Part shown: piece by piece, positions 3,606-40,129 of the stretch
How positions within the stretch are numbered: the stretch's first letter is position 1
Layout: every line of letters starts with the position of its first letter
Source of the DNA: a virus
Lineage: Duplodnaviria > Caudoviricetes
Reading direction: 5' to 3' (one strand)
DNA: 57,468 nt
IMG/VR virus record: IMGVR_UViG_3300043099_000120
Coordinates: 1 to 57,468 of that record
Notes under the pieces: model-generated
What the model saw: the letters and a program-made list of their open reading frames with translations, nothing else
Database searches by the model: none
What the model was told of the DNA's origin: nothing
Position numbers and translations under genes: made by a program

Positions 3606-3613
3606 GGTGAACC

Positions 3614-4675
3614 ATGGCCTATTCTGGAACCGTTGGGACGACCGTCATCCAAGTCCAGACCCTGATTGATCATGGGGCGCGGCGGTGCGGGAAATTGGCC
3701 GAAGAGCTGACTTCTGAGCAGGTATTGAGCGCTCGGGAGTCGTTGTACTTCCTGTTGTCCAATCTGATCAACATCGGCATTCAGTATTGGGCCATCGACA
3801 AGAAGGTGTACGGGCTCCAGGCGGATCAGTACGTCTACAAGCTGCCTGTTGGTGGCAATGACGTGCTGCAAGCGCTCTATCGGCGCATGAATCGACCCTC
3901 TGGGGCGTATGCAACGAGTGCTGGCGGGACGGTTGAGAACGCGTTTGATAGCAACATTGACACAATCTGCACGCAATCAGCCCCGAATGGCAACATTTCC
4001 GTCAATTATGGGACGAACAATCCCGTCTACATTGGCTCAATCGGCGTACTTCCGGGCGTTTCTGGCAGTATCGACTGCATATTTGAGTATTCCAGCGACG
4101 GAATTGCCTGGAGCACGCTCTATGACCCCGGAGTGACGGCCTGGGTCAACAACGAGTGGATCTGGTACGACATTGAGCCCGGTCAAACGGTCGAGTGGTA
4201 CCGGATTCGGGCAAGAAATGGGTCGACTTTGTCGCTTAGAGAGCTGTATTTCGGCAATAACTCGACCGAAATCACGATGGCGCGGCTAAATCGTGATGAC
4301 TACACCAATCTGCCGAACAAAAACTTCACGGCGAACCAACCGTTTCAGTATTGGTTCAACCGGACCATTCCGCAGGCGGAAATCACGCTCTGGCCGGTGC
4401 CTTCGGACCCGTTTGTGCAGATGACGGTCTGGTACTCGAGGCAGATCATGGATGTTGGTGATCTGTCCGGAGAGCTAGAGATCCCGCAGCGGTGGTATCT
4501 GGCGGTTCAGTCAATGTTGGCGCATCAGATGTCGCTGGAACTGCCGGGAGTGGCGACAGACCGCATCCAGTACCTGGAAGGTCAGGCGGATAAGTACTTG
4601 ACGCTGGCCGAGGTGGAAGAGCGCGACAAGTCGCCGATCTACTTTGCCCCGAACATCAGCGTATACACAAGGTAA
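3614..4675 (+). CDS. Head-tail adaptor / tail tubular protein A-like, with an inserted discoidin (F5/8C)-like domain
   Basis: Helical N-terminus (LIDHGARRCG...ARESLYFLLSNL); C-terminal LNRDDYTNLPNK...LWPVP...EIPQRW; insert with NAFDSNIDT, EYSSDGIAW, WYRIRA, LRELYFG. Confidence 0.6.
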   Translation: MAYSGTVGTTVIQVQTLIDHGARRCGKLAEELTSEQVLSARESLYFLLSNLINIGIQYWAIDKKVYGLQADQYVYKLPVGGNDVLQALYRRMNRPSGAYATSAGGTVENAFDSNIDTICTQSAPNGNISVNYGTNNPVYIGSIGVLPGVSGSIDCIFEYSSDGIAWSTLYDPGVTAWVNNEWIWYDIEPGQTVEWYRIRARNGSTLSLRELYFGNNSTEITMARLNRDDYTNLPNKNFTANQPFQYWFNRTIPQAEITLWPVPSDPFVQMTVWYSRQIMDVGDLSGELEIPQRWYLAVQSMLAHQMSLELPGVATDRIQYLEGQADKYLTLAEVEERDKSPIYFAPNISVYTR

Positions 4676-22266: not shown

Positions 22267-25200
22267 ATGGGCTGGGTACGAGAAAAAACAGGCATCGAGC
22301 TCAACCCGTTCAAGGTTGCTGAGAGCGCCTTAAACAAGATTGGCGATGTTGTTCAGAACATCATGGAGAACCCATTGCCGGCAATCCTGCAGATTGCAGG
22401 AGCGGCGATAGGAATTCCTCCGTATGTGACCTCCGCAGCAATCACGGCGGCGCAAGGCGGCAACATCAAGGACATCGCCAAGTCCGCGGCGATTTCGTAC
22501 ATCACGTCCGATTTCTTGCAGAACACGCAGATCGGGGCAGACATCCGCAACTACACGTCCAATTTGGTTGCTGGTGATGTCACCGACTACATGATCGAGA
22601 ACTTTGACATCACTGCGGATCAAGCAATCAAGGTGGCGAAACTCTCTACGGCCGCACTCAATGGTGCGGTGGTAGGAGGCATCCGCGCCACCTTGACGGG
22701 CGACAGCATCGCTACGGGCATTGGATCTGGGTTCTCGCAAGGTCTCGTGTATTCAGGCGTTGACAGCTATTTTGATGACCTGAACAAGGATCAGAACTGG
22801 GGACTTGGGAAAAAGACGCTCAACATGATCAAGGGTGCAACAAGCACTGCTTTGAACACGTTGATCAGTGGAAAGGGAGATCCAGCGGCTGCGGTAGGCA
22901 ACTACATCGCCTACGCCACATTGAAGCTTGGTACTTCAGAAGCCAAAACAGCTTTACAAAGAGCCTACGAAGACCTTACTGGCAAAACAGACGAAGCCAA
23001 AGCCGCACAAGACGAATTAGTGAAGTTGCAAGCGGAGTACAACACGCAACTGAACCGTCACAACGAGTTGGTCAACTACGCAAACACCCAAAAACAATCA
23101 TATGACATGTATGTTGGGAACTATCAACGGAGCATTGAAAGCTTTAATTCGTCTATAGAAAGAGATCAAACTGACTATGAACGAACGCTCGCGAGCTTGA
23201 AAAGACAACAACAAGACTATGAGGTGTTTGCAAATGCTGCAAGAACCACCGGGCATCCCGAATATGTAACGTTAGCAAACACTGCCGCAGAGCGAGTCAA
23301 TCAGTATGCTGAACAGCTCAATTCAATTGTTGAATCAGCAAACACTCGGGCAACGAGAGAGTTGTCTATTTTAGAGAGCGAGAAAAAGGTAATAGAGCGA
23401 TACGATGCAGAGCTTGTAAGGCTATCAGATGGAATTGACACGCTACGCAAAGAACTGGAAACGCCGCAAAACGGCAATCTAGCGGAGCGTTTGCAGAAAG
23501 CCGCCAAAGACTACGAGGTCAAATATGCGAACTACAAAGCTTCGGAAGATGGAAAAAACAGGGCTGCAGAGAATTACAACAAGATTGTTGCGGAAGTTGC
23601 TACGCGTGATGCAACGATTGATGCGATCAACGCAGGAGCCATCACTGTTACCGGCCGTACCGCTGATGGTGGTTTCCAACTAGACAACGGCATGATAGTG
23701 AAGGACGGAAAGTTCTATCAGGGGAACGAACCGGTCTTCAGCAATGCGGCGGGTCTGCAACAGAACATGCTAGAGCTCATCGACAATGATGGGCAAGTGT
23801 ATCGGTACGGTATGGATGCCGGTCGGCAGATGTCAACGACAGACATTCAGAACGCGTTCCGCCGGGACTATCAAATTGAATTGTCAGATGCTGAAGCGCA
23901 ACGGTTCGTCGGCGGAAAATATGGCACATATGATCAGCAGAAGTTTGATGACTTTGCGAAAGCACGGGCGCAAGAAACGTATCGCCTGATTGCTGGCCGG
24001 CCAGCAACACAAGAACAACTCAACCAATTCGTGCAGTCGCCAAATAGTCAACAAGCAGCAAGTAACGCCGCGATTCGGGTAACTACTAATGACAGCACGA
24101 TTGTAGACAATGCATCGGCGTTGTCTGTCCGAGAAACAGCGGCACGACAAGTGATCGAAGGGTATTACAAGCAAGGATTGACAGCAGAACAAGTCGAAGA
24201 AAAGCTGGCATCCGGTCAAGCAAATCGGGACATGCAAACGCTTGTAGATCAACGGAAGTTGATTGTTGATCAGCAAATTCAAGGCGTGAAGAACGCTGAA
24301 GCGCAATACGGGGTCAACAGCCCACAGTACAAACAAGCGTACCAGCAAGCTTTAGATCAGATGTCTAAGCTGGGCGGTTATGACGTTATTAGGAATGCGG
24401 ACGGTTCGTTCTCGCACAGCACCTTTGGGCGGCTTGATCAAGAAACGATGATGCCGATGACGGATCGAGCCTACACAGATCCCGTCACAGGAAAACAGTA
24501 CCCGGACAAGGTTGAACAACAGGCAACCGGAAGCTTTGACACGCGTGATGTAGGGATCGTCAAAGCGCGTTTGTCCGATATGTTGGATGATCCAAAGGCA
24601 AACCCTGCGGATCTGTCGACGAAGGAGATGAATAGCTTCGTAGAAAACTTTGCAAAAGCAACGCCACAACAACGCGCAGAGTTGTTGCGAGGAGCCGATA
24701 GCAGCACGTATCAAGTCATCAACGACATGTTCCAAAGCTACTCTGGAGTGGCGGAACGGATGTCGGGTCAGACGTATGAACAGCCGTCCGTTGTAGGAAG
24801 TCTCAAAGAGTCAGATCTGACCAACTACCAGCAGGTGCTGAAGACTGGTCTGCGTGGGGCGGCAGCGGATATTGTTGGCCTGGGTACGCGTGCGGGACAG
24901 CTCGTTGGCGATCTATTGGGATACGACACGCCAACGCTCGACAAGCTGCAAGATCTGATGACTAAAGACAAGCAGACCAACATGGACAAGTTGGTCGGCA
25001 ACGAGCAAGCAGTGGCTGGAGGCTTGGCTTCTGGAGTTATCTCTGCGATTACGTTTATCGCTGGCGGGCCTATGGCAGCCGTGGCGACCATGGGTGGAAT
25101 CGCTGCGAACAACGCTTGGATTGAAGGCGCAAACGCGGTCATTGACAAAGACAACAACGCGTACCGTAGTGAAGAAGAAGCGCGAAAAAATGGTGTGTTT

Positions 25201-28200
25201 GAGTACCGCAAGCTGACGCCCGAAGAAAACGGTATGCGGACGGCGATGATGACGGCCGCGGAAATGGTCGGCGAAGCGCTGGGGGCAAAAGCACTTGGCA
25301 TGGTCATGAAGGGTGTCCCGATCAGTGGCAGCCCGAGTGAAATCATCGATGCAACGCGGCGCATTGCGGTAGGCATGCTGGGCGAGCAAGCGACCGAACA
25401 ATTGACGACGGCGATGCAGATGGCCGCAGACAAGTGGACATCTGTGGGCCTTGGGAAGAACGCAACGTTCGAGGACTATCAGAAGGCGATGATGGACACC
25501 GCCATCGCAACAGCGGTTGCGGTAGGTACATCAACGTCGGCCGGTACGCTTGCGACCAATTTGCGTAATGCATCGCAGACGCCCAACTTGTTCTCGCGAG
25601 ATACGCGAGAGACGGAAGTTGAACCAACGTTGCCCTCGTTAGTACAAACGTTCAAAGAATCTGGTGTTACGAACGTTGAGACGATCGTCAAAGAGTTCCA
25701 AGAGACCATTCAAAATGGTGGCCAAGGCGTTGAAGTGGTGCGAGACAACACTGTCAACACGCTAGTTGATGCAGGGGTATCGAAAGTTCGCGCAGAAATT
25801 CTGGCGAATGAAATGTTAGACCGTGCGTTGTCAACCAAAATTGAAGAAGATCTTAAGGTTAAAGGCCTGTCAGATGCAGAGATTGCATCGATTACGAAGC
25901 CAATCAAAGACATTACAAACGACTTTATCAAGGGCGAAACATCACCTGAACAAAAAGGATTTGATGAGTTGTTTCGCGTGTTGACAGATCCGCAGTTACA
26001 GCAGACGTTGTATCCGGAAAAGGTCACGCCCACTCCAACAACGCCGGACACGCCGCCGGTTACTCCGACGACGCCAACGGTTCCGACTACACCCACAACT
26101 CCAACGGTACCGACTACGCCAACGGTTCCGGAGACACCAACAACCCCGACAACACCAACGACCGATCCGGCGTTGACGCAGTTGCGCAGCGATCTCACGC
26201 AACAGATTGCGGATGCGCGAGCGCAAGGCAAGAGCGAAGTCGAGGCTGTGCAGCAAGCGGTAAATACCGTCGCAGCAAACCTGGGCACTACCAAAGAAAC
26301 GATTCTTGCGCAGTTGGGCACTACGGAAGCGCAGTTGCGAGCGGACGTTGCAAGTCAGGTGGGTGGAGTGGAATCCAGGTTGAGCGCAGCTATTGAAGCC
26401 GCCAAGCAGTCCGGCATGGAAGGCGATGCGGCTTTGCAAGCTGGGATCAATACGGTGTCTCGTGATCTTGGGATAACGAAAAACTCGTTACTGTCACAGC
26501 TGGGCAGGACCGAGCAACAATTGCGATCAGACTTTGCTGGGCAAATCGCAAGCGTCAGCAGTCAGGTGTTCAATGTTCAAACTAGTCTTAGCAACGCTAT
26601 AGCCGCGGCTAGGGCTGCTGGTGCGTCTGGTGATGCTGCGTTGCAAACAGGACTTGACAAGGTTGCGAGCGATCTAGGCACAACCAAAGAACAATTGTTA
26701 ACGCAACTGGGGAAAACGGAAGAACAGTTGCGGGCAGATGTTGCAAGCCAAGTGGGTGGCGTGGAATCCAGGCTCACCGCGGCTATTGATGCTGCTAAAC
26801 AATCAGGCATGCAAGGTGATGCCGCGTTGCAAGCCGGCATCAATCAAGTAGCGTCAGAACTTGGTACAACCAAAGAACAGTTGCTGGCACAGGTTGGAAA
26901 GACCGAAGCGCAGTTGCGTGCAGATATGCAAGCGCAAATCGGTGGCGTTGAAACGCGATTGATTGAGGCTATTCAGCAAGCACGTCAATCAGGCTTGCAA
27001 GGCGATGCGGCTCTCCAGGCTGGGATTGATACAGTTGCTTCGGATATTGGGGCCACTAAGGAACAGTTGCTTGCGCAAGTAGGTAAGACTGAAGCACAAC
27101 TTAAAGCCGATATGCAGGCGCAGGTTGGAGGCGTGGAGTCACGTCTGACCGCAGCAATTGCAGAGGCCCGGCAATCCGGATTGCAAGGGGATGCAGCGCT
27201 TCAAGCCGGTATTGACAGGGTTGCGTCGGATCTCAACACAACGAAAGACATTGTTCTTGAGCAAGTTGGAAAGACCGAACAACAACTGCGGACAGATTTT
27301 GCATCGCAACTAGGCGGGGTGCAGCAACAGATCGGACAGGTGCAGACCGATCTGACCAAAGCGATTGCAGATGCAAAAGCTGCCGGCGCGACCGACGTGC
27401 AAGCCGTTCGCGACGCTTTGGCCACCGTATCAACAAGCCTGGGAACGACGCAAGAGGCGTTGCTGCAACAACTAGGGAAGAGCGAAGCCGATCTGCGTGC
27501 TGAGTTCCGTGCGGGGCAACAAACAACGCAAGAACAAATTGCAGACCTGGGATCAACGTTCATGCAGCAATACGATGCATTGAACGCAGCACAGAAGGCC
27601 CAGTTTGACGCGTTGGTTGAGCAAGGCAGCAACCTGCGGTCTGCGATGAATCTTGTGCAAACACAGACGCAAGAGCAATTGCAGAACGTTGAAACCCGTC
27701 TGCGTGATGCCATGGCTGCTAATGAAGCCGCCGGAATGTCTCGGGATGCAGCGGCGACTAAAGCGATCCAAGACGTTGCTACAAGCGTTGGAACAACGAA
27801 GAGCGAGCTGCTAGCACAGGTTGGCAAGACAGAAGATGTATTGCGTAGTGAACTGGCAACAGGCCTTGCGCAAACGCAAGAGCAGATTCGTAGCGAATTG
27901 CAATCACAATACGATCAATTGACTGCCTCGCAAAAGGCGCAGTTTGATGCAATGGTCGAGCAGGGTGCCAATCTGCGTACCGCGATGGATCTTGTCAGAT
28001 CTGAGGCGCAAGCCGCGCAGGAACAGACGCGAGAGCAGATCGCCCAATTGGATGTCAGCACTCAAGCGAAGTTTGAGCAGATGTCGGAAGCGCAGCGGCA
28101 GCAGGCGCTGCAACTTGCGCAAACCTCTGGAGACCTGACCACAGCAATCAATAACGTTGCTGCTACGACCGCAACGCAGATCACGGGCGTAGAGACCCGA

Positions 28201-31200
28201 TTGCGGGATGCTATAGCGGCAAACGAAGCCGCTGGTTTGTCGCGAGACGAAGCAATTACAAAGTCGATTACCGATGTTGCAGCAAACCTGGGAACCACAA
28301 AAGATGCGTTGCTGGCGCAACTGGGAACGTCTGAGCAAGTTTTGCGGTCAGAATTGACCGCCGGCTTGCAAGCAACGCAGCAACAGTTAAGCCAACAACT
28401 TCAAACGCAATATGACCAGCTAACGGCCGCGCAGAAAGCGCAGTTCGATGCGTTGATCGAGCAGGGAGCGAATTTACGCACAGCGATGGATCTGGTGCGG
28501 TCTGAAGCTCAAGCGGCACAAGAACAAACGCAGCAGCAGATTGCGCAGCTGGACGCCAACACGCAATCGAAGTTCAATCAACTGTCGGATGCGCAGAAGC
28601 AACAAGCGATTGATCTTGCCAGAACGTCTGGCGATCTGACGACGGCAATCAATAACGTTGCGGCTACGACGGCCACCCAGATTACAGGCGTGGAAACGCG
28701 ACTGCGCGAAGCTATGGCCGCTAACGAGGCGGCAGGCCTGTCGCGAGACGAAGCGGCAAACAAAGCGATTCAGGATGTTGCAACGAGCGTTGGCACAAGC
28801 AAAGAGCAGTTGTTGTCGCAACTTGGAAAAACCGAACAGACCTTGCGCGGCGAGTTGGCGGCGGGGCTGGCAGGGGTGCAGACAGGCTTGGAAAGCCAAA
28901 TTGCAGGCGTGCAGAAGAACTTGAACGACGCAATTGCTGCAAACGAAGCAGCAGGATTGTCGAGGGACGCCGCGATTACGAAGTCCATCACCGATGTTGC
29001 GACAAGCCTGGGTACAACAAAGGAGGCGTTGCTAGCGCAACTTGGTACGTCAGAGCAAACGCTCCGGTCAGAATTGGCTGCTGGGTTGCAGCAGACGCAA
29101 CAGCAGTTGAGTCAACAGATGCAGGCGCAATACGACAGTTTGTCGGCTGCGCAAAAAGCCGAGGTGGATGCTCGTGTTCAACAAGGCCAGGATTTGACGG
29201 CCGCGATGCAGGCTGTTGGGCAGCAAATATCGCAACAACTATCGCAATCAGAAACGGCGCTCCGACAAGCGATTGGTCAACTGGGGACGAATGTTCAGGG
29301 TCAGTTTGATCAAATGAGCGCAGCACAAAAAGCGGAAGTTGCTGCACGCGTACAACAAGGGCAAGACTTGCAAGCGGCAATTCAGGGTGTTAGCGAGCAA
29401 ACGCAACAACAGATTGCTCAGTCCGAGACCGCGTTGAGACAAGCGATTGGGCAGCTTGGTACAAACGTACAAGGGCAGTTTGATCAGATGTCGGCTGCGC
29501 AGAAAGCCGAAGTAGCCGCGAGGGTGCAACAGGGGCAAGATCTATCAGCAGCTATTCAGTCTGTTGGTGCGCAAGCAACGCAACAAATTGCACAAACTGA
29601 GACTGCGTTGCGTCAGGCTATTGGCCAACTAGGAACCGATGTTCAAGGCCAATTCAATGCCATGGACGCTGCGCAAAAAGCGGAAGTCGCTGCGCGTGTC
29701 CAGCAGGGGCAAGATCTTCAAGCCGCGATTGCAAACGTCGGAGCTCAGACCGAACAGAAGCTGGCGCAGACGCAGGCTGGACTCGAGGCAGCGATCGGAC
29801 GCCTGGGGTCGGACGTGCAGTCGCAGTTCTCGCAGATGGACGCAGCACAGAAGGCTGAAGTCGCTGCTCGCGTTCAGCAGGGACAAGATCTACAGACGGC
29901 CATCGCAAACGTAGGCACGGCCACGGCGCAACAAATTGCGCAGAGCGAGGCTGGTCTTCGCGAAGCAATCGGTCAGCTGGGAACCAACGTTCAGGGTCAA
30001 TTCGATGCGATGACCGCGGCACAGAAGGCTGAGGTTGCCGCCAGGGTCCAGCAAGGTCAAGACCTTCAGACGGCGATTGCCAACGTAGGAACGCAGACGC
30101 AGCAACAGATCGCGGCGTCAGAAACTGCGATGCGCGAAGCCCTTGGTCAACTGGGTACGGATGTTCGCACGCAGTTTGATCAGATGTCCCAGGCGCAGAA
30201 GGCTGAAGTCACGGCCAGGATGCAGCAAGGACAGGATCTTCAGACGGCAATCCAGAACGTTGGGCAACAGGCGTCACAACAGCTGACGGAAGCGCAGACG
30301 GCGTTGCGCGGGCAGATCACGACGCTTGGTGAGGATCTGCAACGTCAGTACAACACGATGAGCGATGCCCAGCGCGAAGAAGTTGCGCAGCGTGTTCAAT
30401 TGGGTCAGCAGCTGGATGCAGCAATTTCAAACGTTGGGATGCGGATAGGGCAAGTTGAAGAAAAACTGACACTAAACGTCGAAGATTTGCGCAAACAGAT
30501 TGCTGCTGAGAATGCTCGGAAGGCCGCAGCCGATAAAGCGGCGGCGGAAAAACAGGCTCGTGAAAAAACGTTGCAACTTGGCCAACAAGCAGTAGCAACG
30601 CCTGAAGGAACTCCAACTCCAGAAGCGCAGTTCCGTGGCCCCATGATGACTGGTGAGGCCAAAGATACCGAATTCAAAGGCCCCCTTGAAGAATTCTTCA
30701 AGAAAGTTGAGCAAACTTCGTACACGGCACCGCCAGGACAACCTATGCAGCAACCACAACCGACTCAGGTGGCGCAACAACAGACTGCGCAGCCAGCACA
30801 ACAAGGCCCCAACTACTATTCGTATGGGGTGTTCAACGAGATTGACCAGATTTTGAATCCGCTATCGAGTGCGATGCCCTCGATGTTTGCGAAAGCGGGT
30901 GGTCTGGCAACCCCGATGTTTGCGCAGGGTGGCTTGAATGTGGTGCATCACTCTGGCAAAGAACGGTTGGATTTCCGGCAGGGAGCCGCGGTCAGTGGCC
31001 CTGGGGACGGGCAGTCGGACGACATCCCAGCGATGCTGGCTGACGGGGAGTTTGTCTTCCCGGCCGATGTTGTTGCAGCCCTGGGGAATGGATCTACTAA
31101 GGCTGGAAGCGATAAACTATACGACATGATGCATTCCATCCGGGCGCACCACCGGTCGGCAAGACCTGAAGATCTGCCGCCTCCGGCTAAAAAATCGCCT

Positions 31201-31230
31201 TTGGACTACCTGAAGAAGGCTAGGAGATAA
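22267..31230 (+). CDS. Giant putative internal virion/ejection protein (2987 aa) with Q/A-rich repeat arrays and a C-terminal GPGDG-SD-GEFV domain
   Basis: Uninterrupted ORF with hydrophobic G/A helices, coiled coils, a Pro/Thr linker and 62-, 167- and 58-aa repeats; ends FAQGG...GPGDGQSDDIPAMLADGEFVFPADVV. Confidence 0.8.
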   Translation: MGWVREKTGIELNPFKVAESALNKIGDVVQNIMENPLPAILQIAGAAIGIPPYVTSAAITAAQGGNIKDIAKSAAISYITSDFLQNTQIGADIRNYTSNLVAGDVTDYMIENFDITADQAIKVAKLSTAALNGAVVGGIRATLTGDSIATGIGSGFSQGLVYSGVDSYFDDLNKDQNWGLGKKTLNMIKGATSTALNTLISGKGDPAAAVGNYIAYATLKLGTSEAKTALQRAYEDLTGKTDEAKAAQDELVKLQAEYNTQLNRHNELVNYANTQKQSYDMYVGNYQRSIESFNSSIERDQTDYERTLASLKRQQQDYEVFANAARTTGHPEYVTLANTAAERVNQYAEQLNSIVESANTRATRELSILESEKKVIERYDAELVRLSDGIDTLRKELETPQNGNLAERLQKAAKDYEVKYANYKASEDGKNRAAENYNKIVAEVATRDATIDAINAGAITVTGRTADGGFQLDNGMIVKDGKFYQGNEPVFSNAAGLQQNMLELIDNDGQVYRYGMDAGRQMSTTDIQNAFRRDYQIELSDAEAQRFVGGKYGTYDQQKFDDFAKARAQETYRLIAGRPATQEQLNQFVQSPNSQQAASNAAIRVTTNDSTIVDNASALSVRETAARQVIEGYYKQGLTAEQVEEKLASGQANRDMQTLVDQRKLIVDQQIQGVKNAEAQYGVNSPQYKQAYQQALDQMSKLGGYDVIRNADGSFSHSTFGRLDQETMMPMTDRAYTDPVTGKQYPDKVEQQATGSFDTRDVGIVKARLSDMLDDPKANPADLSTKEMNSFVENFAKATPQQRAELLRGADSSTYQVINDMFQSYSGVAERMSGQTYEQPSVVGSLKESDLTNYQQVLKTGLRGAAADIVGLGTRAGQLVGDLLGYDTPTLDKLQDLMTKDKQTNMDKLVGNEQAVAGGLASGVISAITFIAGGPMAAVATMGGIAANNAWIEGANAVIDKDNNAYRSEEEARKNGVFEYRKLTPEENGMRTAMMTAAEMVGEALGAKALGMVMKGVPISGSPSEIIDATRRIAVGMLGEQATEQLTTAMQMAADKWTSVGLGKNATFEDYQKAMMDTAIATAVAVGTSTSAGTLATNLRNASQTPNLFSRDTRETEVEPTLPSLVQTFKESGVTNVETIVKEFQETIQNGGQGVEVVRDNTVNTLVDAGVSKVRAEILANEMLDRALSTKIEEDLKVKGLSDAEIASITKPIKDITNDFIKGETSPEQKGFDELFRVLTDPQLQQTLYPEKVTPTPTTPDTPPVTPTTPTVPTTPTTPTVPTTPTVPETPTTPTTPTTDPALTQLRSDLTQQIADARAQGKSEVEAVQQAVNTVAANLGTTKETILAQLGTTEAQLRADVASQVGGVESRLSAAIEAAKQSGMEGDAALQAGINTVSRDLGITKNSLLSQLGRTEQQLRSDFAGQIASVSSQVFNVQTSLSNAIAAARAAGASGDAALQTGLDKVASDLGTTKEQLLTQLGKTEEQLRADVASQVGGVESRLTAAIDAAKQSGMQGDAALQAGINQVASELGTTKEQLLAQVGKTEAQLRADMQAQIGGVETRLIEAIQQARQSGLQGDAALQAGIDTVASDIGATKEQLLAQVGKTEAQLKADMQAQVGGVESRLTAAIAEARQSGLQGDAALQAGIDRVASDLNTTKDIVLEQVGKTEQQLRTDFASQLGGVQQQIGQVQTDLTKAIADAKAAGATDVQAVRDALATVSTSLGTTQEALLQQLGKSEADLRAEFRAGQQTTQEQIADLGSTFMQQYDALNAAQKAQFDALVEQGSNLRSAMNLVQTQTQEQLQNVETRLRDAMAANEAAGMSRDAAATKAIQDVATSVGTTKSELLAQVGKTEDVLRSELATGLAQTQEQIRSELQSQYDQLTASQKAQFDAMVEQGANLRTAMDLVRSEAQAAQEQTREQIAQLDVSTQAKFEQMSEAQRQQALQLAQTSGDLTTAINNVAATTATQITGVETRLRDAIAANEAAGLSRDEAITKSITDVAANLGTTKDALLAQLGTSEQVLRSELTAGLQATQQQLSQQLQTQYDQLTAAQKAQFDALIEQGANLRTAMDLVRSEAQAAQEQTQQQIAQLDANTQSKFNQLSDAQKQQAIDLARTSGDLTTAINNVAATTATQITGVETRLREAMAANEAAGLSRDEAANKAIQDVATSVGTSKEQLLSQLGKTEQTLRGELAAGLAGVQTGLESQIAGVQKNLNDAIAANEAAGLSRDAAITKSITDVATSLGTTKEALLAQLGTSEQTLRSELAAGLQQTQQQLSQQMQAQYDSLSAAQKAEVDARVQQGQDLTAAMQAVGQQISQQLSQSETALRQAIGQLGTNVQGQFDQMSAAQKAEVAARVQQGQDLQAAIQGVSEQTQQQIAQSETALRQAIGQLGTNVQGQFDQMSAAQKAEVAARVQQGQDLSAAIQSVGAQATQQIAQTETALRQAIGQLGTDVQGQFNAMDAAQKAEVAARVQQGQDLQAAIANVGAQTEQKLAQTQAGLEAAIGRLGSDVQSQFSQMDAAQKAEVAARVQQGQDLQTAIANVGTATAQQIAQSEAGLREAIGQLGTNVQGQFDAMTAAQKAEVAARVQQGQDLQTAIANVGTQTQQQIAASETAMREALGQLGTDVRTQFDQMSQAQKAEVTARMQQGQDLQTAIQNVGQQASQQLTEAQTALRGQITTLGEDLQRQYNTMSDAQREEVAQRVQLGQQLDAAISNVGMRIGQVEEKLTLNVEDLRKQIAAENARKAAADKAAAEKQAREKTLQLGQQAVATPEGTPTPEAQFRGPMMTGEAKDTEFKGPLEEFFKKVEQTSYTAPPGQPMQQPQPTQVAQQQTAQPAQQGPNYYSYGVFNEIDQILNPLSSAMPSMFAKAGGLATPMFAQGGLNVVHHSGKERLDFRQGAAVSGPGDGQSDDIPAMLADGEFVFPADVVAALGNGSTKAGSDKLYDMMHSIRAHHRSARPEDLPPPAKKSPLDYLKKARR
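26026..26165 (+). repeat. Pro/Thr low-complexity linker (TPTTPTVP)n
   Basis: TPTPTTPDTPPVTPTTPTVPTTPTTPTVPTTPTVPETPTTPTTPTT. Confidence 0.9.
26362..27500 (+). repeat. Imperfect tandem 186-bp (62-aa) coding repeats
   Basis: GGV(E/Q) anchors at 26362, 26755, 26941, 27127 and 27313; 186-bp spacing except the first interval (393 bp, two units, one of them longer). Confidence 0.85.
27691..29100 (+). repeat. Imperfect tandem 501-bp (167-aa) coding repeats
   Basis: ETRLR anchors at 27691, 28192 and 28693. Confidence 0.85.
29130..30450 (+). repeat. Eight imperfect tandem 174-bp (58-aa) coding repeats
   Basis: QKAEV/QREEV anchors at 29152, 29326, 29500, 29674, 29848, 30022, 30196 and 30370. Confidence 0.9.
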
Positions 31231-32308: not shown

Positions 32309-33928
32309 ATGGCAGACAAAGCTCCGGCAGTAGGGTACTTGCCACCGACTGATCCTGCGGCCGAAGAGGCAAACCGGGTTTATCAGGAAGCGCTTGCCAA
32401 GCTGAATCAATCGTTGGATCTGCGGAAAAACCGCATGTTCGATCCGATGTATTTGGCCGCGGCACGAGGGTTTCTTGGTCCGTCGCAGACCGGAAGTTTT
32501 TATGAGTCGCTGGGTCGTGTTGCTGGAACGGTCGGCGAAGCTCAAGAGCAACGAATCAAAGAGCAGCAGGAAGAAGCCCGGCAACGGCTAGATGTTGCTG
32601 GCGCTGGTCTCGAGCTAGAGCGCCTCAAGCAGCAAGAACGAGCGATCGGCCAATTCCTTGGCGGTGGGCAACAGCCGCCGGCTGGCGGTCTTGCGGCCGG
32701 GCCGGCTCCTGGCGCGGCACCTACCGGCGGATTGCCTGGGCGTGCTCCGGCTCCCGCGGGCGGTGGTCTGGCAAAGCCACCAGGGTTTGAGGATGTGCAA
32801 GGTATTCAGACGATGCCGCCCAATCCAGAGTTCATGACTGGGCGCGACTTTATTGAGTTGAATCGGTTTGAGCGCGGCAGGAACTTCCCGGATCTTCTGA
32901 AGCAAGCGCAGGAGATAAATCAGAAGCGGTACGTTGCCAAGGAAGGCGGCTTACAGGACATGCGCACAGGCTTGTTCTTTCCGTTCCCGAAAGGCGAGCA
33001 GGTTGATCGTCAGATCGATGGCAAGACGTACAAAGTCGATAGTAAGACGGCCGCGCTTCTGGACATGTACGCAGCGAGTAACGACCCGCGCTACTACTCT
33101 GTGGCCAAGCGGGTTGTCGAAGGGCCGACGAGACCGGCAGATGGCAAAGCGGAAGAGCCGCAACGTCGCAAGTCCCAGGAAGAGCTGGAGATTGAGCGCA
33201 AGCAAGCGGAGGCCTTGGCGACTGGTCGAGGGCAAACGGCGGCAAAAGAGGAAGCCGAGTTACCGTCACGCGTCAGTGCGGCGCGGCAGATGTTTGGGGT
33301 TGCTGGCCGTGTTGAGAATGCGTTAAGAGAGAGCGGCAATTTCTTTGGCATTTTCCAGCGTCCTGGAATTGTCCCGGCCGTTGGTAAGCTTGTGGCAGAA
33401 GGCGTGCAAACGCCTGGGGGAACGATTAACCTTCCAGGGTTGCAACAAGCGGTGACGCAAGCGCTGCCAGGGGTAACGCAAAAAGACATCGACAACGTTG
33501 TTACCGCCGCTGCGGATTTTGCCGAGGTTGAGTTGCTCTACCGCCGGTTGTATCTGCAAGGCCAAGGCGCGGTCAGCAACATGGAAGGTCAGGTCGTTGC
33601 GCGACTTGGTGGATCGGTGGCCAATTCTCCTGGCGTGTTGCGAGCGCGGATGCAGCTGTTGCGAGAGCGGTCGCAATTTGATATGGATGTTGGCAACGCC
33701 TGGGGGGTGTACCAAGACAAGAATCCGGATAAGTCGTTCACGGATTTCCGTCGAAGCAGTATGTATCGAGATTTGCTGCGGAACTTTGAAGAAAAGATGG
33801 GCGAGCTCGAGAAGCGGTTGCCAGCTGTTCCGACGAGTCAAAGGCCGGCAGCAACTCCAGCGCAGCCGTCTCAGCAAAATCTCGGGACAGCACGTCAACG
33901 GTTGGATTCACTGCTACAGGGGCAATGA
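32309..33928 (+). CDS. Putative ejection protein (helical)
   Basis: Position in the ejection block; coiled coils; GQGAVSNMEG motif. Confidence 0.65.
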   Translation: MADKAPAVGYLPPTDPAAEEANRVYQEALAKLNQSLDLRKNRMFDPMYLAAARGFLGPSQTGSFYESLGRVAGTVGEAQEQRIKEQQEEARQRLDVAGAGLELERLKQQERAIGQFLGGGQQPPAGGLAAGPAPGAAPTGGLPGRAPAPAGGGLAKPPGFEDVQGIQTMPPNPEFMTGRDFIELNRFERGRNFPDLLKQAQEINQKRYVAKEGGLQDMRTGLFFPFPKGEQVDRQIDGKTYKVDSKTAALLDMYAASNDPRYYSVAKRVVEGPTRPADGKAEEPQRRKSQEELEIERKQAEALATGRGQTAAKEEAELPSRVSAARQMFGVAGRVENALRESGNFFGIFQRPGIVPAVGKLVAEGVQTPGGTINLPGLQQAVTQALPGVTQKDIDNVVTAAADFAEVELLYRRLYLQGQGAVSNMEGQVVARLGGSVANSPGVLRARMQLLRERSQFDMDVGNAWGVYQDKNPDKSFTDFRRSSMYRDLLRNFEEKMGELEKRLPAVPTSQRPAATPAQPSQQNLGTARQRLDSLLQGQ

Positions 33929-36746: not shown

Positions 36747-37373
36747 TCAGAATGGGATTTCTTCGTCCTGGGTTCTGGCCGGTGCAGGAGCGTCGCGGTT
36801 TTGCCACTCGGGAGACTGCGCGATCTTCTCTTGCAGCGATCGACTGAAGGTTGCATACATGGCCATGTCTGGCGCGGCAAGTGAGAAGAGTCCCAATTCG
36901 TTGTGCCCTTCAGGAAGTCCAGCACGTTTGATGGAAGGGGGAACTGGGGAAACCGCAACGACGTTGCTGTATTCCTTACCGTTCTTTCCGGGGGTTCTGG
37001 CAACGGTCAACATGCACCACTGGCCAAGGATGTTCTTGAGCACGAACCCTTTGCGTTCCTCGGCAGTGAAGTCCCGGCTTCTCCAGGAGGCCAGATCAGC
37101 GCGGAGCGTAGCTTTGTCTCCCAGGTCGTTGGTGTAGTTCTTCGAGATGGACATCGGCTCGCCCTTCGTTGTCAACAGCGGCTTGCCATCATCGTCTTCC
37201 GAGTAGATTTCCCACTGGATCATGATCTTGTGCAGATGCTTGACGCGATCCTGCCAGACCGATTTTTGAGTCCCGAGATCAACGATCCGGTAGCACCGGG
37301 CTAGATGCATGCCGGCAGGCACGGGGATGAAATCACTCACTCGTCCGCTGCTATTGTCACGTGCGATCAACAT
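36747..37373 (-). CDS. SSB-like replication protein (NGO0469-like family)
   Basis: PAGMHLARCYRIVDLGTQ...KATLRADLASWR...LGQWCML; acidic-aromatic tail DEEIPF as in single-stranded DNA-binding proteins. Confidence 0.7.
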   Translation of the reverse strand: MLIARDNSSGRVSDFIPVPAGMHLARCYRIVDLGTQKSVWQDRVKHLHKIMIQWEIYSEDDDGKPLLTTKGEPMSISKNYTNDLGDKATLRADLASWRSRDFTAEERKGFVLKNILGQWCMLTVARTPGKNGKEYSNVVAVSPVPPSIKRAGLPEGHNELGLFSLAAPDMAMYATFSRSLQEKIAQSPEWQNRDAPAPARTQDEEIPF

Positions 37374-37515
37374 TTTTGATTCTCCTGAGTCCGCATTCAA
37401 AGTAGATGATTTGCCAATCCTCTTCTTGAGCCGTTCCATCTTCGGCGCGTATGAGGGCGTCTTCCAGTCTCTGTTGTCTTTCAAGCATCAGTTGGTGCAT
37501 TTCTCCTTGATCCAT
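37357..37515 (-). CDS. Hypothetical protein (52 aa)
   Basis: AAGGAG RBS inside an ACAGCGAAGGA box; MDQGEMHQLMLERQQRLEDAL... Confidence 0.75.
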   Translation of the reverse strand: MDQGEMHQLMLERQQRLEDALIRAEDGTAQEEDWQIIYFECGLRRIKNVDRT

Positions 37516-37541
37516 CGCTACTCCTTCGCTGTGGAGGCTCA

Positions 37542-37570
37542 AGCATACATCATCTAATGCAGGATTACAA
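37542..37570 (-). promoter_or_regulatory. Sigma70-type leftward promoter
   Basis: On the minus strand TTGTAA-N17-TATGCT, upstream of the 37515 ORF and divergent from the Cro-like gene. Confidence 0.6.
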
Positions 37571-37591
37571 GCGATGGTGTAAGCTACGGTT

Positions 37592-37804
37592 ATGGAGGAC
37601 ACCATGACTTTACGAGACCTGTTGAAGACGATGCCCCGCGGAGCGCAGAAAGAACTAGCGTTGCTGCTCGGGATTACGCAGACCTGGATGACGCTGATCG
37701 TCAATGGTCACGCACGGCCGAGCGCGGAGCTGGCAGCGAAGATTGCTGATGCGACCGATGGCAAGGTGACGCTGAAAGACCTACGGCCGGATCTCTTCGC
37801 ATGA
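37592..37804 (+). CDS. Cro/YdaS-like HTH regulator (start may be 37604)
   Basis: QKELALLLGITQTWMTLIVNG..RPS...IADATDGKVTLKDLRPDLF; GGAGG RBS before 37604. Confidence 0.85.
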   Translation: MEDTMTLRDLLKTMPRGAQKELALLLGITQTWMTLIVNGHARPSAELAAKIADATDGKVTLKDLRPDLFA

Positions 37805-38118
37805 ACTGGTACAAGTTCCCGGTTGTCGACTACCGCAAGATTGCTGCCGAGTTGCCAGATGCGGAAGATCTGGCCTTTCGCCGGATGATGGATCTGTACT
37901 ACCTGCGCAAGGGGCCGCTGCCGCTCGATCAAGACGAGCTGGTGCGCGAGATCCGACTCGACTGGGATTGCATCGAGCCGGTGCTTTATGGGTTCTTCAC
38001 GCGGACCCCTGACGGCTGGCTGAACGACTACCTTCAGGCGGATGTTATGCGCAGGATCAAGCGGTCAGAGACAAACAGCCAAAGCGGTCGGCGTGGCGGT
38101 CGGCCAAAGAAGGCTTGA
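37801..38118 (+). CDS. YdaU/DUF1376-family protein (N-terminal domain of a replication initiator)
   Basis: MNWYKF...DY...EDLAFRRMMDLYY...PLP...VL..FF...GW.N...GGRPKK. Confidence 0.85.
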   Translation: MNWYKFPVVDYRKIAAELPDAEDLAFRRMMDLYYLRKGPLPLDQDELVREIRLDWDCIEPVLYGFFTRTPDGWLNDYLQADVMRRIKRSETNSQSGRRGGRPKKA

Positions 38119-38143
38119 CAGTACGCAGACACGGCTATAAGAT
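38115..38143 (+). promoter_or_regulatory. Strong sigma70-type promoter
   Basis: TTGACA (38115-20)-N17-TAAGAT (38138-43). Confidence 0.8.
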
Positions 38144-38149
38144 TGGATC

Positions 38150-38254
38150 TGTTGGCGTAGGAACCGACATCAATAGAACCCTTGCTCATGCATCCTGCCC
38201 AGTCCCTCCGGTCTGGGTTCCTACCAGGGTGCAGCAGCAAGGGTTTTTTGTTTT
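38150..38254 (+). ncRNA. Leader RNA/attenuator: small hairpin plus long terminator-like hairpin with complementary 9-mers (C4/CI antisense-target-like)
   Basis: tgttgg/ccgaca hairpin carrying GTAGGAACC (38157-65); its reverse complement GGTTCCTAC (38216-24) sits inside the stem aacccttgct/agcaagggtt, which is followed by a T tract. Confidence 0.6.
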
Positions 38255-38264
38255 CTACGTTAGC

Positions 38265-38500
38265 CGTTCCCCTCACGATAGCGAGAGCCTGCATGGGCTG
38301 CGAGGGAGGAAACACCGGCCAATCTTCACCCTGATTGCGTGCCGACCAGCCTGTCTGCGAGGGACTGGTGTAGACGCTTGGGACAGCGGTGGTAGACCAC
38401 CCAGGCATCGAAACAATCGCAGCCTCCGGGTGCTCTGGCTTTGTCACAGGATGACAGTAGCGGGAGAGGTGGGAAACCAGTCATGGGCTCCACCCTGGGG
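38265..38500 (+). ncRNA. Candidate multi-stem structured RNA or structured replication origin
   Basis: Long-range helices agagc/gctct and ggctgcga/tcgcagcc enclose several hairpins; the region has no convincing CDS. Confidence 0.5.
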
Positions 38501-38611
38501 ATGTCATGTTCAAAGTCCATGAAAACTATCAACATCCGAATCCCGATAAATAAAAATCAACGCCAAGAACAAGAAACCCGGTTACAGTCAGCTCTGTAAC
38601 AAGGAGATCCA

Positions 38612-38920
38612 ATGAAACCTGATGACGTAAGCGATGAATGTTGGGCCGACTTCCTCGAACATCGGCGCAAGAAGCGAGCGATTGTCACGGCGCGTGTAGT
38701 CCGGTCCATTCGAGTGGAAGCCGAAAAGGCCGGTTATACCCTAGAGGCTGCATTAGATCATTGCGTGATGATGGGTTGGCAGGGGTTCAGGGCCGACTGG
38801 GTCAAGGCTAAAACCGAAAAAGAGCGGACGCTTGACTTTTTGTACGGGCGAACAGGGCAGGATCGGACTATTGACGTTTTTGATTGGGAAGTGATCAATG
38901 ACAAACCACCGCTACTTTAA
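38612..38920 (+). CDS. Replication-initiator C-terminal-like domain protein
   Basis: AAGGAG RBS; PDDVSDECWADFLEHRRKKRA.VT...EAEKAG..LE.AL......GWQGF.ADW. Confidence 0.7.
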   Translation: MKPDDVSDECWADFLEHRRKKRAIVTARVVRSIRVEAEKAGYTLEAALDHCVMMGWQGFRADWVKAKTEKERTLDFLYGRTGQDRTIDVFDWEVINDKPPLL

Positions 38921-39446
38921 TCGCATTATGGAACGGTTCGGGGTGTTGTTCGGCCATCAGAAGATGGCGGCAGTCTTTCAGGGTGCTGATGACGCGACAG
39001 CGCAAGCCTGGGAGGTCCACCTGCGGTCGACTGATCCTGAAGTAATTCGTAAGGCGTTGGAGTCTCTTGCGACCAACCCGCCAGACTGGCCACCGGCGCT
39101 TGGTGAGTTCATCAAGCTTTGCAAGCAGATGAATCGCCCGGAGCACCGTGTCGCGCTTCCGCCGCCGCGGTTTGAGCCGACGGAGGAGGGCCGCAAGCTT
39201 CAGGCCGAGATCATGTCGTCGATCACTAAGTCGAACTATGACTACCTGTATTGGGCCAAGCGGCCTGGATCTGCGAGAGCGGTTGCGCTGTTGGTTCGAG
39301 GCGCTCGGGAGGATCGTAGACTGAGGGATATTCTGGATCACCTGATAGCCACCGATGGACACGACTGCCGACGAGACGATGCTCGACAAGCGATCCGAAG
39401 CCTTTCGGCATCAATGCGAAGTCAGGTGGCTTTTGCGCAAGGCTGA
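38898..39446 (+). CDS. Helicase-loader-like protein (lambda P-like position)
   Basis: W...L......I..AL......DWPPALGEF...C motif, directly after the initiator-like gene. Confidence 0.6.
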   Translation: MTNHRYFNRIMERFGVLFGHQKMAAVFQGADDATAQAWEVHLRSTDPEVIRKALESLATNPPDWPPALGEFIKLCKQMNRPEHRVALPPPRFEPTEEGRKLQAEIMSSITKSNYDYLYWAKRPGSARAVALLVRGAREDRRLRDILDHLIATDGHDCRRDDARQAIRSLSASMRSQVAFAQG

Positions 39447-39588
39447 CAGAGCAAAAGACAAGAAGGCTGCGACGTATGACTACATCGGACTGGTGCGGGC
39501 GGCTCGAGGCGATGATGCGGCGGACAAGTTGTTGAGAGATACGAGAGAACAATGGGCCAAAGGGAACAGGGGCGACGGATGGAAATAA
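39379..39588 (+). CDS. Hypothetical protein
   Basis: SEAFRHQCEVRWLL...RG..AADKL.RD...QW..GNRG..G.W; overlaps both neighbours. Confidence 0.7.
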   Translation: MLDKRSEAFRHQCEVRWLLRKADRAKDKKAATYDYIGLVRAARGDDAADKLLRDTREQWAKGNRGDGWK

Positions 39589-39923
39589 CCTTGCCATGGC
39601 CACCGTCAGTCAATACGTACTGGCGGACCTTCCGCGGTCGGATGCTGATCAGCGCCCATGGCCGCGAGTACCGCACCGCGGTAGCGGAGCAAGTGATGAT
39701 GCAGCGAGGGGCGATGCATTACACCGCGCCGCTCAAAGTCACGATCGAAGCCTGGAGGCCAGACCGCCGGAAGCGGGATCTCGACAACCTGCTGAAAGCT
39801 GCTCTGGACTCGCTCGCGCACGCCGGGGTATTCGAGGACGACTCGCAGATTGTGGACCTACGGATCTACTGGGCTCCGAACATCGGCGGGATGCTCAAAG
39901 TAACGATTGAGGAAGTGCAATGA
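39579..39923 (+). CDS. rusA: RusA family Holliday junction resolvase
   Basis: LPWPPSVNTYWR, PDRRKRDLDNLLKAALDSL, FEDDSQI. Confidence 0.92.
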   Translation: MEITLPWPPSVNTYWRTFRGRMLISAHGREYRTAVAEQVMMQRGAMHYTAPLKVTIEAWRPDRRKRDLDNLLKAALDSLAHAGVFEDDSQIVDLRIYWAPNIGGMLKVTIEEVQ

Positions 39924-40129
39924 ACGAAGCAAAACCGTTGATGGTGCGGTGGTTCAAAGGCGGTAAGGGGTTAGTCGGGGTGGTGAAATGCGAGCTCGAA
40001 GATGGCACGATTGAGTACCGCATCGGCGCGGTTGACGGGTTCATGGAAAAGATGGATGTCTTGCAACTAGTTGCCTGGGGCGCGGAGTTCCCGAAGGCCG
40101 CGGGCGACGCACTTATGAAAGCGAAGTGA
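39920..40129 (+). CDS. Hypothetical protein
   Basis: ATGA-coupled 69-aa ORF with an RBS. Confidence 0.7.
   Translation: MNEAKPLMVRWFKGGKGLVGVVKCELEDGTIEYRIGAVDGFMEKMDVLQLVAWGAEFPKAAGDALMKAK

Follow-up and report, generated by a model that had tools for sequence, protein, structure and literature searches.

The DNA analysed in this work, referred to throughout as the window, is a complete virus record of 57,468 bp with direct terminal repeats (IMG/VR record IMGVR_UViG_3300043099_000120; Caudoviricetes), in which matches to PHROG profiles indicate terminase, portal, tail, lysis and replication functions, nearly all of them on the + strand. A 493-nt intergenic gap (38119-38611) separates a gene encoding a short DUF1376 protein of 105 amino acids (37801-38118, + strand; PF07120, E 4.4e-14) from a gene encoding a protein of 102 amino acids that, according to its PHROG matches, resembles the C-terminal part of replication initiator O (38612-38920, + strand). 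An original prediction made from the sequence alone had placed a novel, multi-stem structured RNA in a non-coding stretch at 38265-38500, which does indeed fall within this gap. The analysis described here indicates that the locus is occupied by two adjacent modules, comprising a promoter, leader and terminator (module A, 38115-38254) followed by a structured RNA of approximately 245 nt (module B, 38264-38510, + strand), the latter being identified by nhmmer, by a covariance model and by covariation counts. Module B belongs to a large family of phage RNAs that as yet has no name and, together with module A as the first half, constitutes a portable cassette.

Members of the family are present in at least 129 IMG/VR contigs, the individual contig loci examined being designated here by L-numbers. 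Fourteen viral contigs encode relatives of the window DUF1376 protein, of which one is identical, one (L003, with 76% identity in the DUF1376 protein) has the element and 12 (L004-L015, nine of them distinct) do not. Comparison of the window with L003 revealed that 38242-38500 is kept at 78.6% DNA identity between diverged flanks, and that several of the differences are compensatory. A 19-mer from the conserved core was found in 17 viral contigs, representing 14 distinct elements, the gapped motif CCTGCATGGG-N4-18-AAACACCGG in at least 119 viral contigs, and a 3' motif in 34. From these, 117 full-length extracts were reduced to 92 distinct sequences, with 49 representatives less than 80% identical, and an nhmmer profile built on the 92 distinct copies gave 131 matches among 150 loci. 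The profile did not match the 12 element-less DUF1376 relatives, two chance genome matches or six other loci. An independent third motif, chosen to avoid the first, retrieved 103 stretches, and 38 of the 48 loci that were new were confirmed by the profile. When metagenome contigs were searched with the first motif at least 120 stretches were returned, 54 of the 120 listed being confirmed by the profile; the remaining 66, which include very long contigs, are chance matches, as is to be expected of a gapped pattern of 19 bases. According to the profile there is one element per genome or contig, with a single copy in the window (38253-38543, E 2.2e-70), where the covariance model also scores 180 bits (38312-38512). 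Conservation of the element is far above that of the sequence that flanks it.

The whole cassette is also present in GenBank entry MW202484 (MW202484.1, locus L199), a phage assembled from a spring, in which the covariance model scores 57.8 bits (E 1.3e-16). A coding sequence annotated in that entry as 'hypothetical protein' (33533-33892; L199:2523-2882) spans the module A terminator and all of module B, and is probably a spurious open reading frame (ORF). Searches of cultured phages (INPHARED) with 521 nt of the window or with an L037-type member gave no match, and the only match to an L055-type member was MW202484. Near-identical copies of the window stretch were detected in 20 DNA runs of lake or freshwater origin from 17 studies, three rows of which are possibly the source itself. 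The 19-mer additionally hit two contigs of a genome collection, from Gemmatimonadales and Mucilaginibacter, but these were rejected as chance matches in which the element is absent, such that no host can be assigned from them.

Next, the secondary and tertiary structure of module B was examined. The RNA contains seven helices, to which three pseudoknots (PK1-PK3) and a single isolated tertiary pair are added, the helices having been found by eye, with RNAalifold and by mutual information, and counted afterwards. For the 3' 200 nt, 85 matches (83 distinct) were aligned to a covariance model of 199 positions. Because it is fitted to the nested helices this alignment favours them, whereas PK2 and the lone pair lie outside the model and are free of the bias. 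Over the 83 distinct rows, 88.2% of cells are paired compared with 67.6% in shuffles, none of 500 of which scored as high, and the covariation score is 0.496 compared with 0.161. Sliding the partners by 1-3 columns reduced pairing to 37-45%, and 44 of the 51 pairs have changed on both sides. For the 5' domain (38265-38306), an unfitted MAFFT alignment of 42 diverse members was used, on which this domain is 93.5% paired compared with 73.2% in shuffles (0/500 as high; 19-45% when slid). Covariation across homologous regions, which had been proposed as a check on the structure, is therefore strong, with 88-94% of cells paired as opposed to 68-73% in shuffles.

The 5' domain is composed of a 3-bp stem (S1, 38265-67/38275-77), the loop of which (38270-73) pairs with 38303-06 to form PK1, all four pairs having changed on both sides, and of hairpin c (38286-90/38295-99), which has a UGCAUG-like loop; S1 and hairpin c were both included in the 5' domain count. 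It is followed by hairpin d (38316-38344, CGGC CAAUC / GAUUG ... GCCG; covarying helices 1 and 2), with a near-invariant CACCC at 38327-31 in its loop, and by hairpin e (38345-52/38361-69; helix 3, 96.0% paired, 8/8 pairs changed on both sides). A strand in the loop of hairpin e, CUGCGA at 38355-60, forms PK2 with UCGCAG at 38417-22; PK2 is 98.1% paired with both-side changes at 6/6 pairs, and its pairs are among those with the highest mutual information. Hairpin f (38373-82/38400-09; helix 5, 91.1% paired, 9/9 both-side changes) carries the loop sequence GGUGG (38388-92), which pairs with CCACC at 38490-94 to form PK3. The latter is 98.3% paired, with at least five of the six pairs formed in 61 of 61 distinct members, and its fifth pair (n=59) is G-C in 37 members, A-U in 18, G-U in one and something other in three. 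Between the PK2 and PK3 strands lie a small hairpin g (38423-24/38429-30; helix 6, 91.3% paired), an isolated tertiary pair between C38426 and G38437, and helix h (38433-36/38463-66 and 38438-39/38460-61; helix 8, 94.1% and helix 9, 74.2% paired). The isolated pair is C-G in 56, U-A in 23 and U-G in one of 80 members and unpaired in none, i.e. 100% paired. The tip of helix h is variable in length, being UGUCA/UGACA (38442-56) in the window and accommodating insertions of up to ~50 nt elsewhere. Module B also contains long stretches that are invariant and unpaired.

In a sub-group of loci (L157, L170, L179 and L193) the central and 3' parts of module B are kept and the 5' domain is replaced; approximately 60 nt before AAACACCGG, a sequence of the form ...CCGGAUUGA.AAGGCCAG... 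stands in place of S1, PK1 and hairpin c.

This architecture differs in part from the fold originally proposed. The local hairpins cggc-caatc/gattg-gccg (38316-44), accag/ctggt and gcttggg/cccaggc (38373-82/38400-09) are all conserved and covary, the second extending to 38345-52/38361-69, as does tgtca/tgaca (38442-56), which corresponds to the variable tip of the longer helix h. Conversely, the proposal that the fold is a junction closed by two long-range helices is unsupported: taken together over the 42 diverse members, the junction-closing pairings agagc/gctct and ggctgcga/tcgcagcc and a local ggtgg/ccacc (38388-92/38397-401) are 61.7% paired compared with 60.4% in shuffles, with a covariation score of 0.129 compared with 0.112. 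The downstream ggtgg/ccacc pairing (38468-94) fared little better. Here, a local GGUGG arm (38468-38472) is a possible partner of 38490-94 in place of PK3, but this pairing (helix 10) is weak at 70.9%, with a mean of 4.51 of six pairs compared with 4.36 in shuffles and 18 A.C mismatches at the fifth pair, and the 38490-94 strand is supported in PK3 instead. The repeated CTGCGAGGGA had been noted as well, and its second copy does supply the PK2 strand CUGCGA (38355-60), whereas the first copy is confined to the window lineage and is missing from L003 and many other members. Folding z-scores, another proposed check, lent no support, with values of -0.63 on the + strand and -0.38 on the - strand for 38265-38500, and -0.49 for the corrected borders 38262-38512, none of which is significant; in isolation these values would have overturned the prediction. 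Since an energy model restricted to nested pairs is blind to pseudoknots, the comparative evidence was taken to decide over the z-score.

The covariation data also bear on the nature of the selected molecule. Two U.G pairs are near-invariant (80/81 and 77/82 cells) and exchanges between G.U and A.U are frequent, which indicates that it is the + strand RNA that is selected, rather than the DNA or the other strand.

The f-loop appears to have a choice of partners. The CACC of the d-loop (38327-30) can pair with the same f-loop GGUG that is engaged in PK3, and this alternative is 95.6% paired, close to the 98.3% observed with the 3' strand. Of the members that could discriminate between the two, only L107 and L128 are informative; in both, the d-loop, f-loop and 3' strand carry a matching U/A exchange together. 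This may be a weak hint that exchange of f-loop partners, between the d-loop and the 3' strand, constitutes a switch. Several further pairings were considered and rejected. The loop of hairpin c was entertained as a palindromic kissing loop or as a mimic of the initiator anticodon (UGCAUG), and was dismissed in view of the variants UGUAUG, UGAAUG and UGCCUG that emerged from the independent motif search, while neither pairing of a 3' CUAU with AUAG (38278-81) nor pairing of the G-run at the 3' edge with the d-loop displayed consistent covariation by eye.

Module A lies immediately upstream. It opens with a sigma-70-type promoter (38115-38143, + strand), consisting of a -35 hexamer TTGACA (38115-20), a 17-nt spacer and a -10 hexamer TAAGAT (38138-43), which together match the consensus at 10 of 12 positions; the site is right past the DUF1376 stop codon and is the sole such site in 37300-39000. 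Transcription would be expected to start at approximately 38149-51. In diverged members, -35- and -10-like hexamers or an extended -10 (TGTGTATAAT) occur at an equal distance before the first stem-loop, as read by eye and uncounted. This stem-loop (SL1, 38150-38169, UGUUGG/CCGACA; helix 1, 94.5% paired) has an 8-nt loop that includes GUAGGAA (38157-63), and is followed by a long hairpin, SL2 (38179-38243), and a U-run (38244-54), which together have the sequence characteristics of an intrinsic terminator or attenuator, i.e. a stable, G+C-rich hairpin and a U-run on the transcribed strand. The SL2 helix (helix 3) is 96.9% paired, with 13/16 pairs changed on both sides, and the module A pairs as a whole are 89.9% paired compared with 69.7% in shuffles, with a score of 0.578 compared with 0.203 (0/500 as high). 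The minimum free energy of the predicted ~100-nt transcript is -50.1 kcal/mol (z -5.33), a stability that none of 200 shuffles attained. A simple terminator scan did not list SL2, the scan admitting only loops of 3-8 nt. A T-run is found no more than 45 nt from module B in 65 of 97 distinct upstream flanks.

A tertiary pairing is apparent within module A, between the SL1 loop (38157-63) and UUCCUAC in the 3' internal loop of the terminator hairpin (38218-24). The loop 7-mer and its exact complement are present in 45 of 59 distinct flanks that bear a T-run, in at least 15 versions (from a listing read by eye), and on an unfitted MAFFT alignment the interaction is 75.7% paired, with four of the seven pairs changed on both sides. 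Versions found from L003 to L146 include GUAGGAA, GUGGAAG, GUGAGAG, GUCGAAA and GUUGCAC, nearly always with GU at the start. To judge from these sequences, the 7-nt pairing looks like a specificity determinant as opposed to a plain helix. A third copy of the 7-mer that might serve as a target in trans was sought in the window, where exact copies occur only at 5615 and 30085, within coding regions, and are uninformative. Module A is lacking from L025, L041, L047 and L100, in which module B directly follows a gene. In four other loci (L062, L096, L122 and L133) an extra long hairpin (GAGACUGGGACUG...CAGUCC.AGUCUC) is situated between the module A terminator and module B, approximately 120 nt before the latter, and the ORFs just upstream of this hairpin match only the C-terminal part of the endonuclease profile phrog_93.

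At its 3' edge, module B abuts a Shine-Dalgarno (SD)-like G-run (38497-38500, + strand) and an AUG (38506-08), the last module B strand (38490-94) ending 2-3 nt before the G-run. An SD-like run occurs within 12 nt in 76 of 82 distinct members, and 61 of the 82 have an AUG at a fixed position 10-11 nt past CCACCC. In the window this AUG opens a mini-ORF of 15 codons (38506-38553, + strand; MFKVHENYQHPNPDK), the length and sequence of which are unconserved across the family. Elsewhere, it mostly opens ORFs of 2-66 codons and rarely a real gene (130, 207 or 253 amino acids). The window gene at 38612-38920 has its own strong AAGGAG SD and ATG, approximately 100 nt past the RNA. Terminator-like sites were found within 170 nt downstream in only three of 81 loci, compared with 34 of 81 upstream by the same test, which indicates that module B belongs to a longer transcript that runs into the next genes.

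The gene neighbourhoods of the element are very varied. Downstream neighbours include, in many loci, C-terminal-type replication-initiator ORFs, and also genes for terminase small subunit, major head protein, tail-fibre adhesin, HNH endonuclease, DNA methylase, PAPS reductase and a queuine transferase fragment. Upstream neighbours with PHROG matches comprise HNH endonucleases, terminase large and small subunits, thymidylate synthase, primase and repressors. Two T7-like contigs have the gene for the T7 capsid assembly (scaffold) protein upstream and the major head gene downstream. The cassette is found in both early and late positions. The association with DUF1376 and replication genes envisaged in the original prediction does not hold as such, since elsewhere in the family this RNA is followed by genes for capsid, terminase, tail fibre and other products. 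No shared upstream protein partner emerged either, 39 of 41 upstream ORFs being without a Pfam family and the other two encoding the T7 capsid assembly protein. Between L017 and L020 the sequence is identical through the cassette, as far as the start codons of different downstream genes, whereas L025 and L027 have module B in common and differ upstream. Module borders that coincide with the element in this manner indicate that the cassette behaves as a portable unit at mosaic joints.

A different conserved element, RNA-like and of approximately 150 nt, occupies the same slot in DUF1376 relatives that lack the cassette (L004:1198-1353, L005:3319-3500, L006:3328-3480, L008:3770-3930, L010:3316-3470 and L015:3274-3440). 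It comprises a GCGCC-GUGRRAA-GCGC hairpin and a covarying long-range helix (for instance, UCUCCAUUGG/CCAAUGGAGA vs CCAGAGG/CCUCUGG), and has no match in Rfam. The gene that follows encodes another, longer DUF1376 protein, and its GGAG SD is embedded in the closing long-range helix, an arrangement that supports a regulatory role for the slot.

Some other features of these genomes were noted. The matches of the window DUF1376 protein cover positions 1-110 of 'primosomal protein' PHROGs with lengths of 272-345 positions, and that of the 38612-38920 product covers positions 219-291 of 346 in phrog_678. With respect to the 'primosomal protein' profile phrog_6451 (272 positions), the genes at 37801-38118 and 38612-38920 correspond to the N-terminal (1-108) and C-terminal (177-264) parts, respectively, which on profile alignment suggests an old split, or a two-gene form of the replication initiator. 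In L003, an extra small gene (3324-3646; phrog_3870, a family of unknown function, with a signal-peptide-like N-terminus) is present between the DUF1376 gene and the cassette. The gene upstream of the cassette in L099 (7503-9743) encodes a terminase large subunit of 746 amino acids that matches TerL profiles in two blocks, residues 25-151 and 518-727; the ~370 residues between them are possibly an intein or an inserted domain. Elsewhere in the window, two very large ORFs (22267-31230, 2987 amino acids; 9475-14652, 1725 amino acids) have almost no PHROG annotation, and the 8-mer GTTCCTAC, with one mismatch allowed, occurs 52 times as opposed to 29.2 +/- 5.4 in shuffles, none of 100 of which reached 52. 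No positional pattern of these occurrences was seen across the window.

The reading of module B that is tentatively favoured, with somewhat less than even confidence, is that of a cis-acting leader RNA that would be reached when transcription reads through the module A terminator. Support for this comes from the promoter and terminator directly upstream, the SD-like run and AUG at the 3' edge, the scarcity of downstream terminators and the presence of one copy per genome. In such a scheme RNA polymerase would start at the cassette promoter, or arrive from an upstream early operon, and most transcripts would end at the leader terminator. Those that read through would include module B, which would fold to a compact knot. 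Pairing of the f-loop GGUGG with either 38490-94 (PK3) or the d-loop CACCC could then set ribosome access to the short leader ORF and, via this ORF, the fold would set downstream expression, which in the window would be that of the O-like replication gene at 38612. A ligand, a protein or folding kinetics could feasibly act as the trigger. Regulation by attenuator read-through was on the list of functions first suggested for the RNA, and is the entry that best fits the anatomy, given the promoter, leader and terminator that are conserved immediately before the RNA and the SD-like run with a start codon at its 3' end; a structured origin acting at the DNA level, also listed, fits poorly.

A number of observations weigh against a cis-acting leader. 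The AUG is absent from its fixed position in 21 of the 82 distinct members, with UUG, AUC, AUA, AUU, CUG or ACG in the 19 that were printed, and where present it usually opens a tiny, unconserved ORF, the real gene beginning 70-190 nt further on. A crude count of ORFs showed that, of the 79 loci with a downstream ORF of 100 amino acids or more, only 60 have the nearest such ORF on the same strand. The great diversity of downstream genes offers no clue to a ligand and would equally fit a processing or stability element. The module A terminator is a prediction from sequence, the host is uncultured, and no RNA run that holds the sequence is among the 24 runs listed. As regards the switch, the evidence derives from L107 and L128, two related sequences that possibly record one evolutionary event, and the local alternative GGUGG arm is poorly supported by its 70.9% pairing. 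Finally, three pseudoknots and many invariant unpaired bases exceed the needs of most translational operators, and are reminiscent of ribozymes.

This last point leads to a second reading, in which module B would be a ribozyme that processes itself or an element that stabilises RNA. It would cut or cap the transcript at a point between the leader or upstream gene and the message downstream, freeing the latter from the RNA that precedes it; RNase III sites between T7 genes bring about a comparable release of downstream message. Ribozyme-like complexity is evident in the three pseudoknots, the isolated tertiary pair and the long invariant unpaired stretches. Moreover, the element sits between many unrelated genes and beside HNH endonuclease genes, as small self-cleaving phage ribozymes do, is located between the scaffold and major capsid genes in the T7-like contigs, and is not followed by a terminator. 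However, there is no resemblance to any Rfam ribozyme family, no conserved candidate cleavage site was identified, and processing alone would leave the conserved SD-like run and AUG unexplained, such that this account is judged unlikely, albeit one to be taken seriously. An RNA that acts in trans, with module B alone or together with module A serving as a scaffold RNA in the style of ROOL and GOLLD, or as a decoy or sponge directed at a host protein or a defence system, appears distinctly unlikely. It would be in keeping with the single copy per genome, with conservation well above that of the flanks, with the inclusion of a strong consensus promoter in the cassette, with the resemblance of module A to a stable, terminated RNA of ~100 nt with internal tertiary pairing, and with the different 5' domain of some members. 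Nevertheless, the cassette terminator precedes module B rather than following it, and in 78 of 81 loci no separate terminator is present for module B. Its 3' end abuts an SD-like run and a start codon and, in L025, L041, L047 and L100, it is directly behind a gene with no promoter module.

The remaining explanations have little to commend them. Conservation at the level of DNA, as a replication origin or a primer or packaging site with single strands that fold, or merely as a conserved linker for recombination between phage modules, might be proposed on the grounds that the element is within the replication module of the window and that module borders coincide with it in L017/L020 and L025/L027. 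Yet pairs are kept via G.U, which would be A.C on the complementary strand, the helices covary and there is no iteron pattern, the sole repeat (CTGCGAGGGA) being lineage-specific; the element also precedes capsid, terminase and tail genes, and a recombination linker would account for the mosaic contexts but not for the compensatory changes. This makes a role at the DNA level very improbable. A self-splicing or mobile intron that splits a replication gene is brought to mind by the two-part match of the flanking ORFs to phrog_6451, by the many other loci in which the match of the downstream ORF to replication-protein families is limited to their C-terminal part, and by the HNH genes nearby. It is nonetheless hard to credit, given that the 12 element-less relatives (nine distinct) have equally short DUF1376 genes (104-125 amino acids) with their own stops, that the downstream ORF has a strong SD and ATG of its own, that in L003 another gene intervenes between the DUF1376 gene and the cassette, that Rfam returned no group I or group II match, and that many flanking genes elsewhere (terminase small subunit, methylase, major head protein) match nearly the full PHROG profile. 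As for translation of the stretch, two ORFs are open in the window (38115-38522, 135 amino acids, + strand; 38034-38447, 137 amino acids, - strand) and the MW202484 'hypothetical protein' covers the element, but neither ORF has a Pfam match, none of the three forward frames is free of stops across the 3' 200 nt in 45 of 82 distinct members, the lengths of indels are not divisible by three (2-nt indels distinguish the window from L003), and substitutions in the helices are compensatory. The protein reading of 38115-38522, named at the outset as something that could overturn the prediction of an RNA, is accordingly not borne out, no frame conserved through substitutions of codon type having been seen, and the chance that the stretch encodes a protein is considered negligible.

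A bolder reading is that module B represents a new catalytic or ligand-sensing class of RNA (a ribozyme or riboswitch) of uncultured, mostly freshwater phages, which with module A would form an RNA-only timing switch. This is regarded as doubtful at present. Were it true, it would amount to a timing switch that can be placed before any operon, whether for replication, capsid or packaging. Regardless of function, the more than 100 natural variants suffice for a structure model of covariation grade, and the RNA is short enough for probing, crystallography and cryo-EM. As it heads key phage operons and follows a promoter-proximal terminator, the RNA may reveal how expression is timed by RNA only in uncultured freshwater phages, and a portable promoter-terminator-leader cassette is of interest to builders of genetic circuits. 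A more immediate consequence is the correction of annotation, for the 'hypothetical protein' of MW202484 and for the two spurious window ORFs of 135 and 137 amino acids.

With regard to known RNAs, a search of the whole window against Rfam 15 gave no match at gathering scores, and no Rfam family matches the element. When the threshold was relaxed to E<=10 for 37000-40000, the only overlap was a match of the terminator hairpin to mir-2066, which scored 19.5 bits compared with a gathering score of 100; at E<=5, 14 diverse member loci (57 kb) yielded two unrelated weak matches elsewhere and none on the element. ARAGORN found no tRNA or tmRNA genes in the whole window. The suggestion first made from the sequence, that this is a novel multi-stem structured RNA, is upheld by these searches, by the size of the family and by its strong covariation, and the earlier failure to match it to a tRNA, riboswitch or intron agrees with them. 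Fremin, Bhatt and Kyrpides (2023; PMC10690425) compiled a catalogue of 10,006 unnamed candidate structured RNAs from IMG/VR, some of which, according to the part of the article consulted, precede genes for RusA, capsid, terminase and methylase. The motif is not named in the portion of the main text that was seen, and the supplementary candidate lists of that catalogue may include part of the module B family. In the portion of the literature that was searched, no description of the module B motif was found.

Comparison with riboswitches and other structured 5' leaders reveals both common and distinguishing features. Module B likewise presents a conserved fold with pseudoknots, which immediately precedes an SD-like run and a start codon, and this covarying, aptamer-like fold is located in what would be a 5' leader; two possible alternative pairings involve the strand beside the SD and, to judge from the lack of a terminator after it, the RNA is transcribed with the downstream message. 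Unlike riboswitches, however, it is without a clear expression platform or known ligand, the downstream genes are unrelated as opposed to belonging to one pathway, the fold is larger and more knotted than in most classes, and no Rfam riboswitch matches. In plasmids of the IncB and IncI-alpha type, a leader peptide and a pseudoknot control replication-initiator genes. The window bears a likeness to these, with a structured leader and short ORF before a replication-initiator-like gene and a long-range pairing by the ribosome site. Differences from the plasmids are that no antisense RNA gene was found, that the mini-ORF is unconserved and not always present, that there is no sequence relation, and that module B is also found before capsid, terminase and tail genes.

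Module A, for its part, is comparable with the leaders of other phages. Late operons of lambdoid phages have a pR'-tR' leader ('6S' RNA) that is subject to antitermination by Q, and phage P4 has an RNA-based immunity leader. Module A resembles the former in having a consensus-like promoter with a strong intrinsic terminator ~100 nt further on, such that read-through would be needed for downstream expression, and the latter in that complementary leader segments vary between phages and yet stay complementary. In contrast to both, the window yielded no antiterminator, whether Q-like or of another kind, the cassette is not confined to late positions, and nothing like module B is known to follow the terminators of lambda or P4. 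The put-type antitermination RNA of HK022 is ~70 nt, with two stem-loops, and is located between a promoter and the first terminator, whereas module B is ~245 nt, has three pseudoknots and lies downstream of the cassette terminator. ROOL and GOLLD are, like module B, large and highly structured phage RNAs that are known from metagenomes and have no established function. Neither matched the window or the 14 other members in the Rfam searches, and module B differs from them in being shorter (~245 nt), in abutting a start codon and in the lack of tRNA genes in the window. Taken against this background, module B is regarded as a new family within the structured leader and non-coding RNAs of phages, absent from Rfam and unusual in its architecture, and we know of no described counterpart to its coupling to a programmable, promoter-proximal terminator module. 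Large RNAs with multiple pseudoknots are rare, and most of those known are ribozymes, riboswitches or RNA-protein machines.

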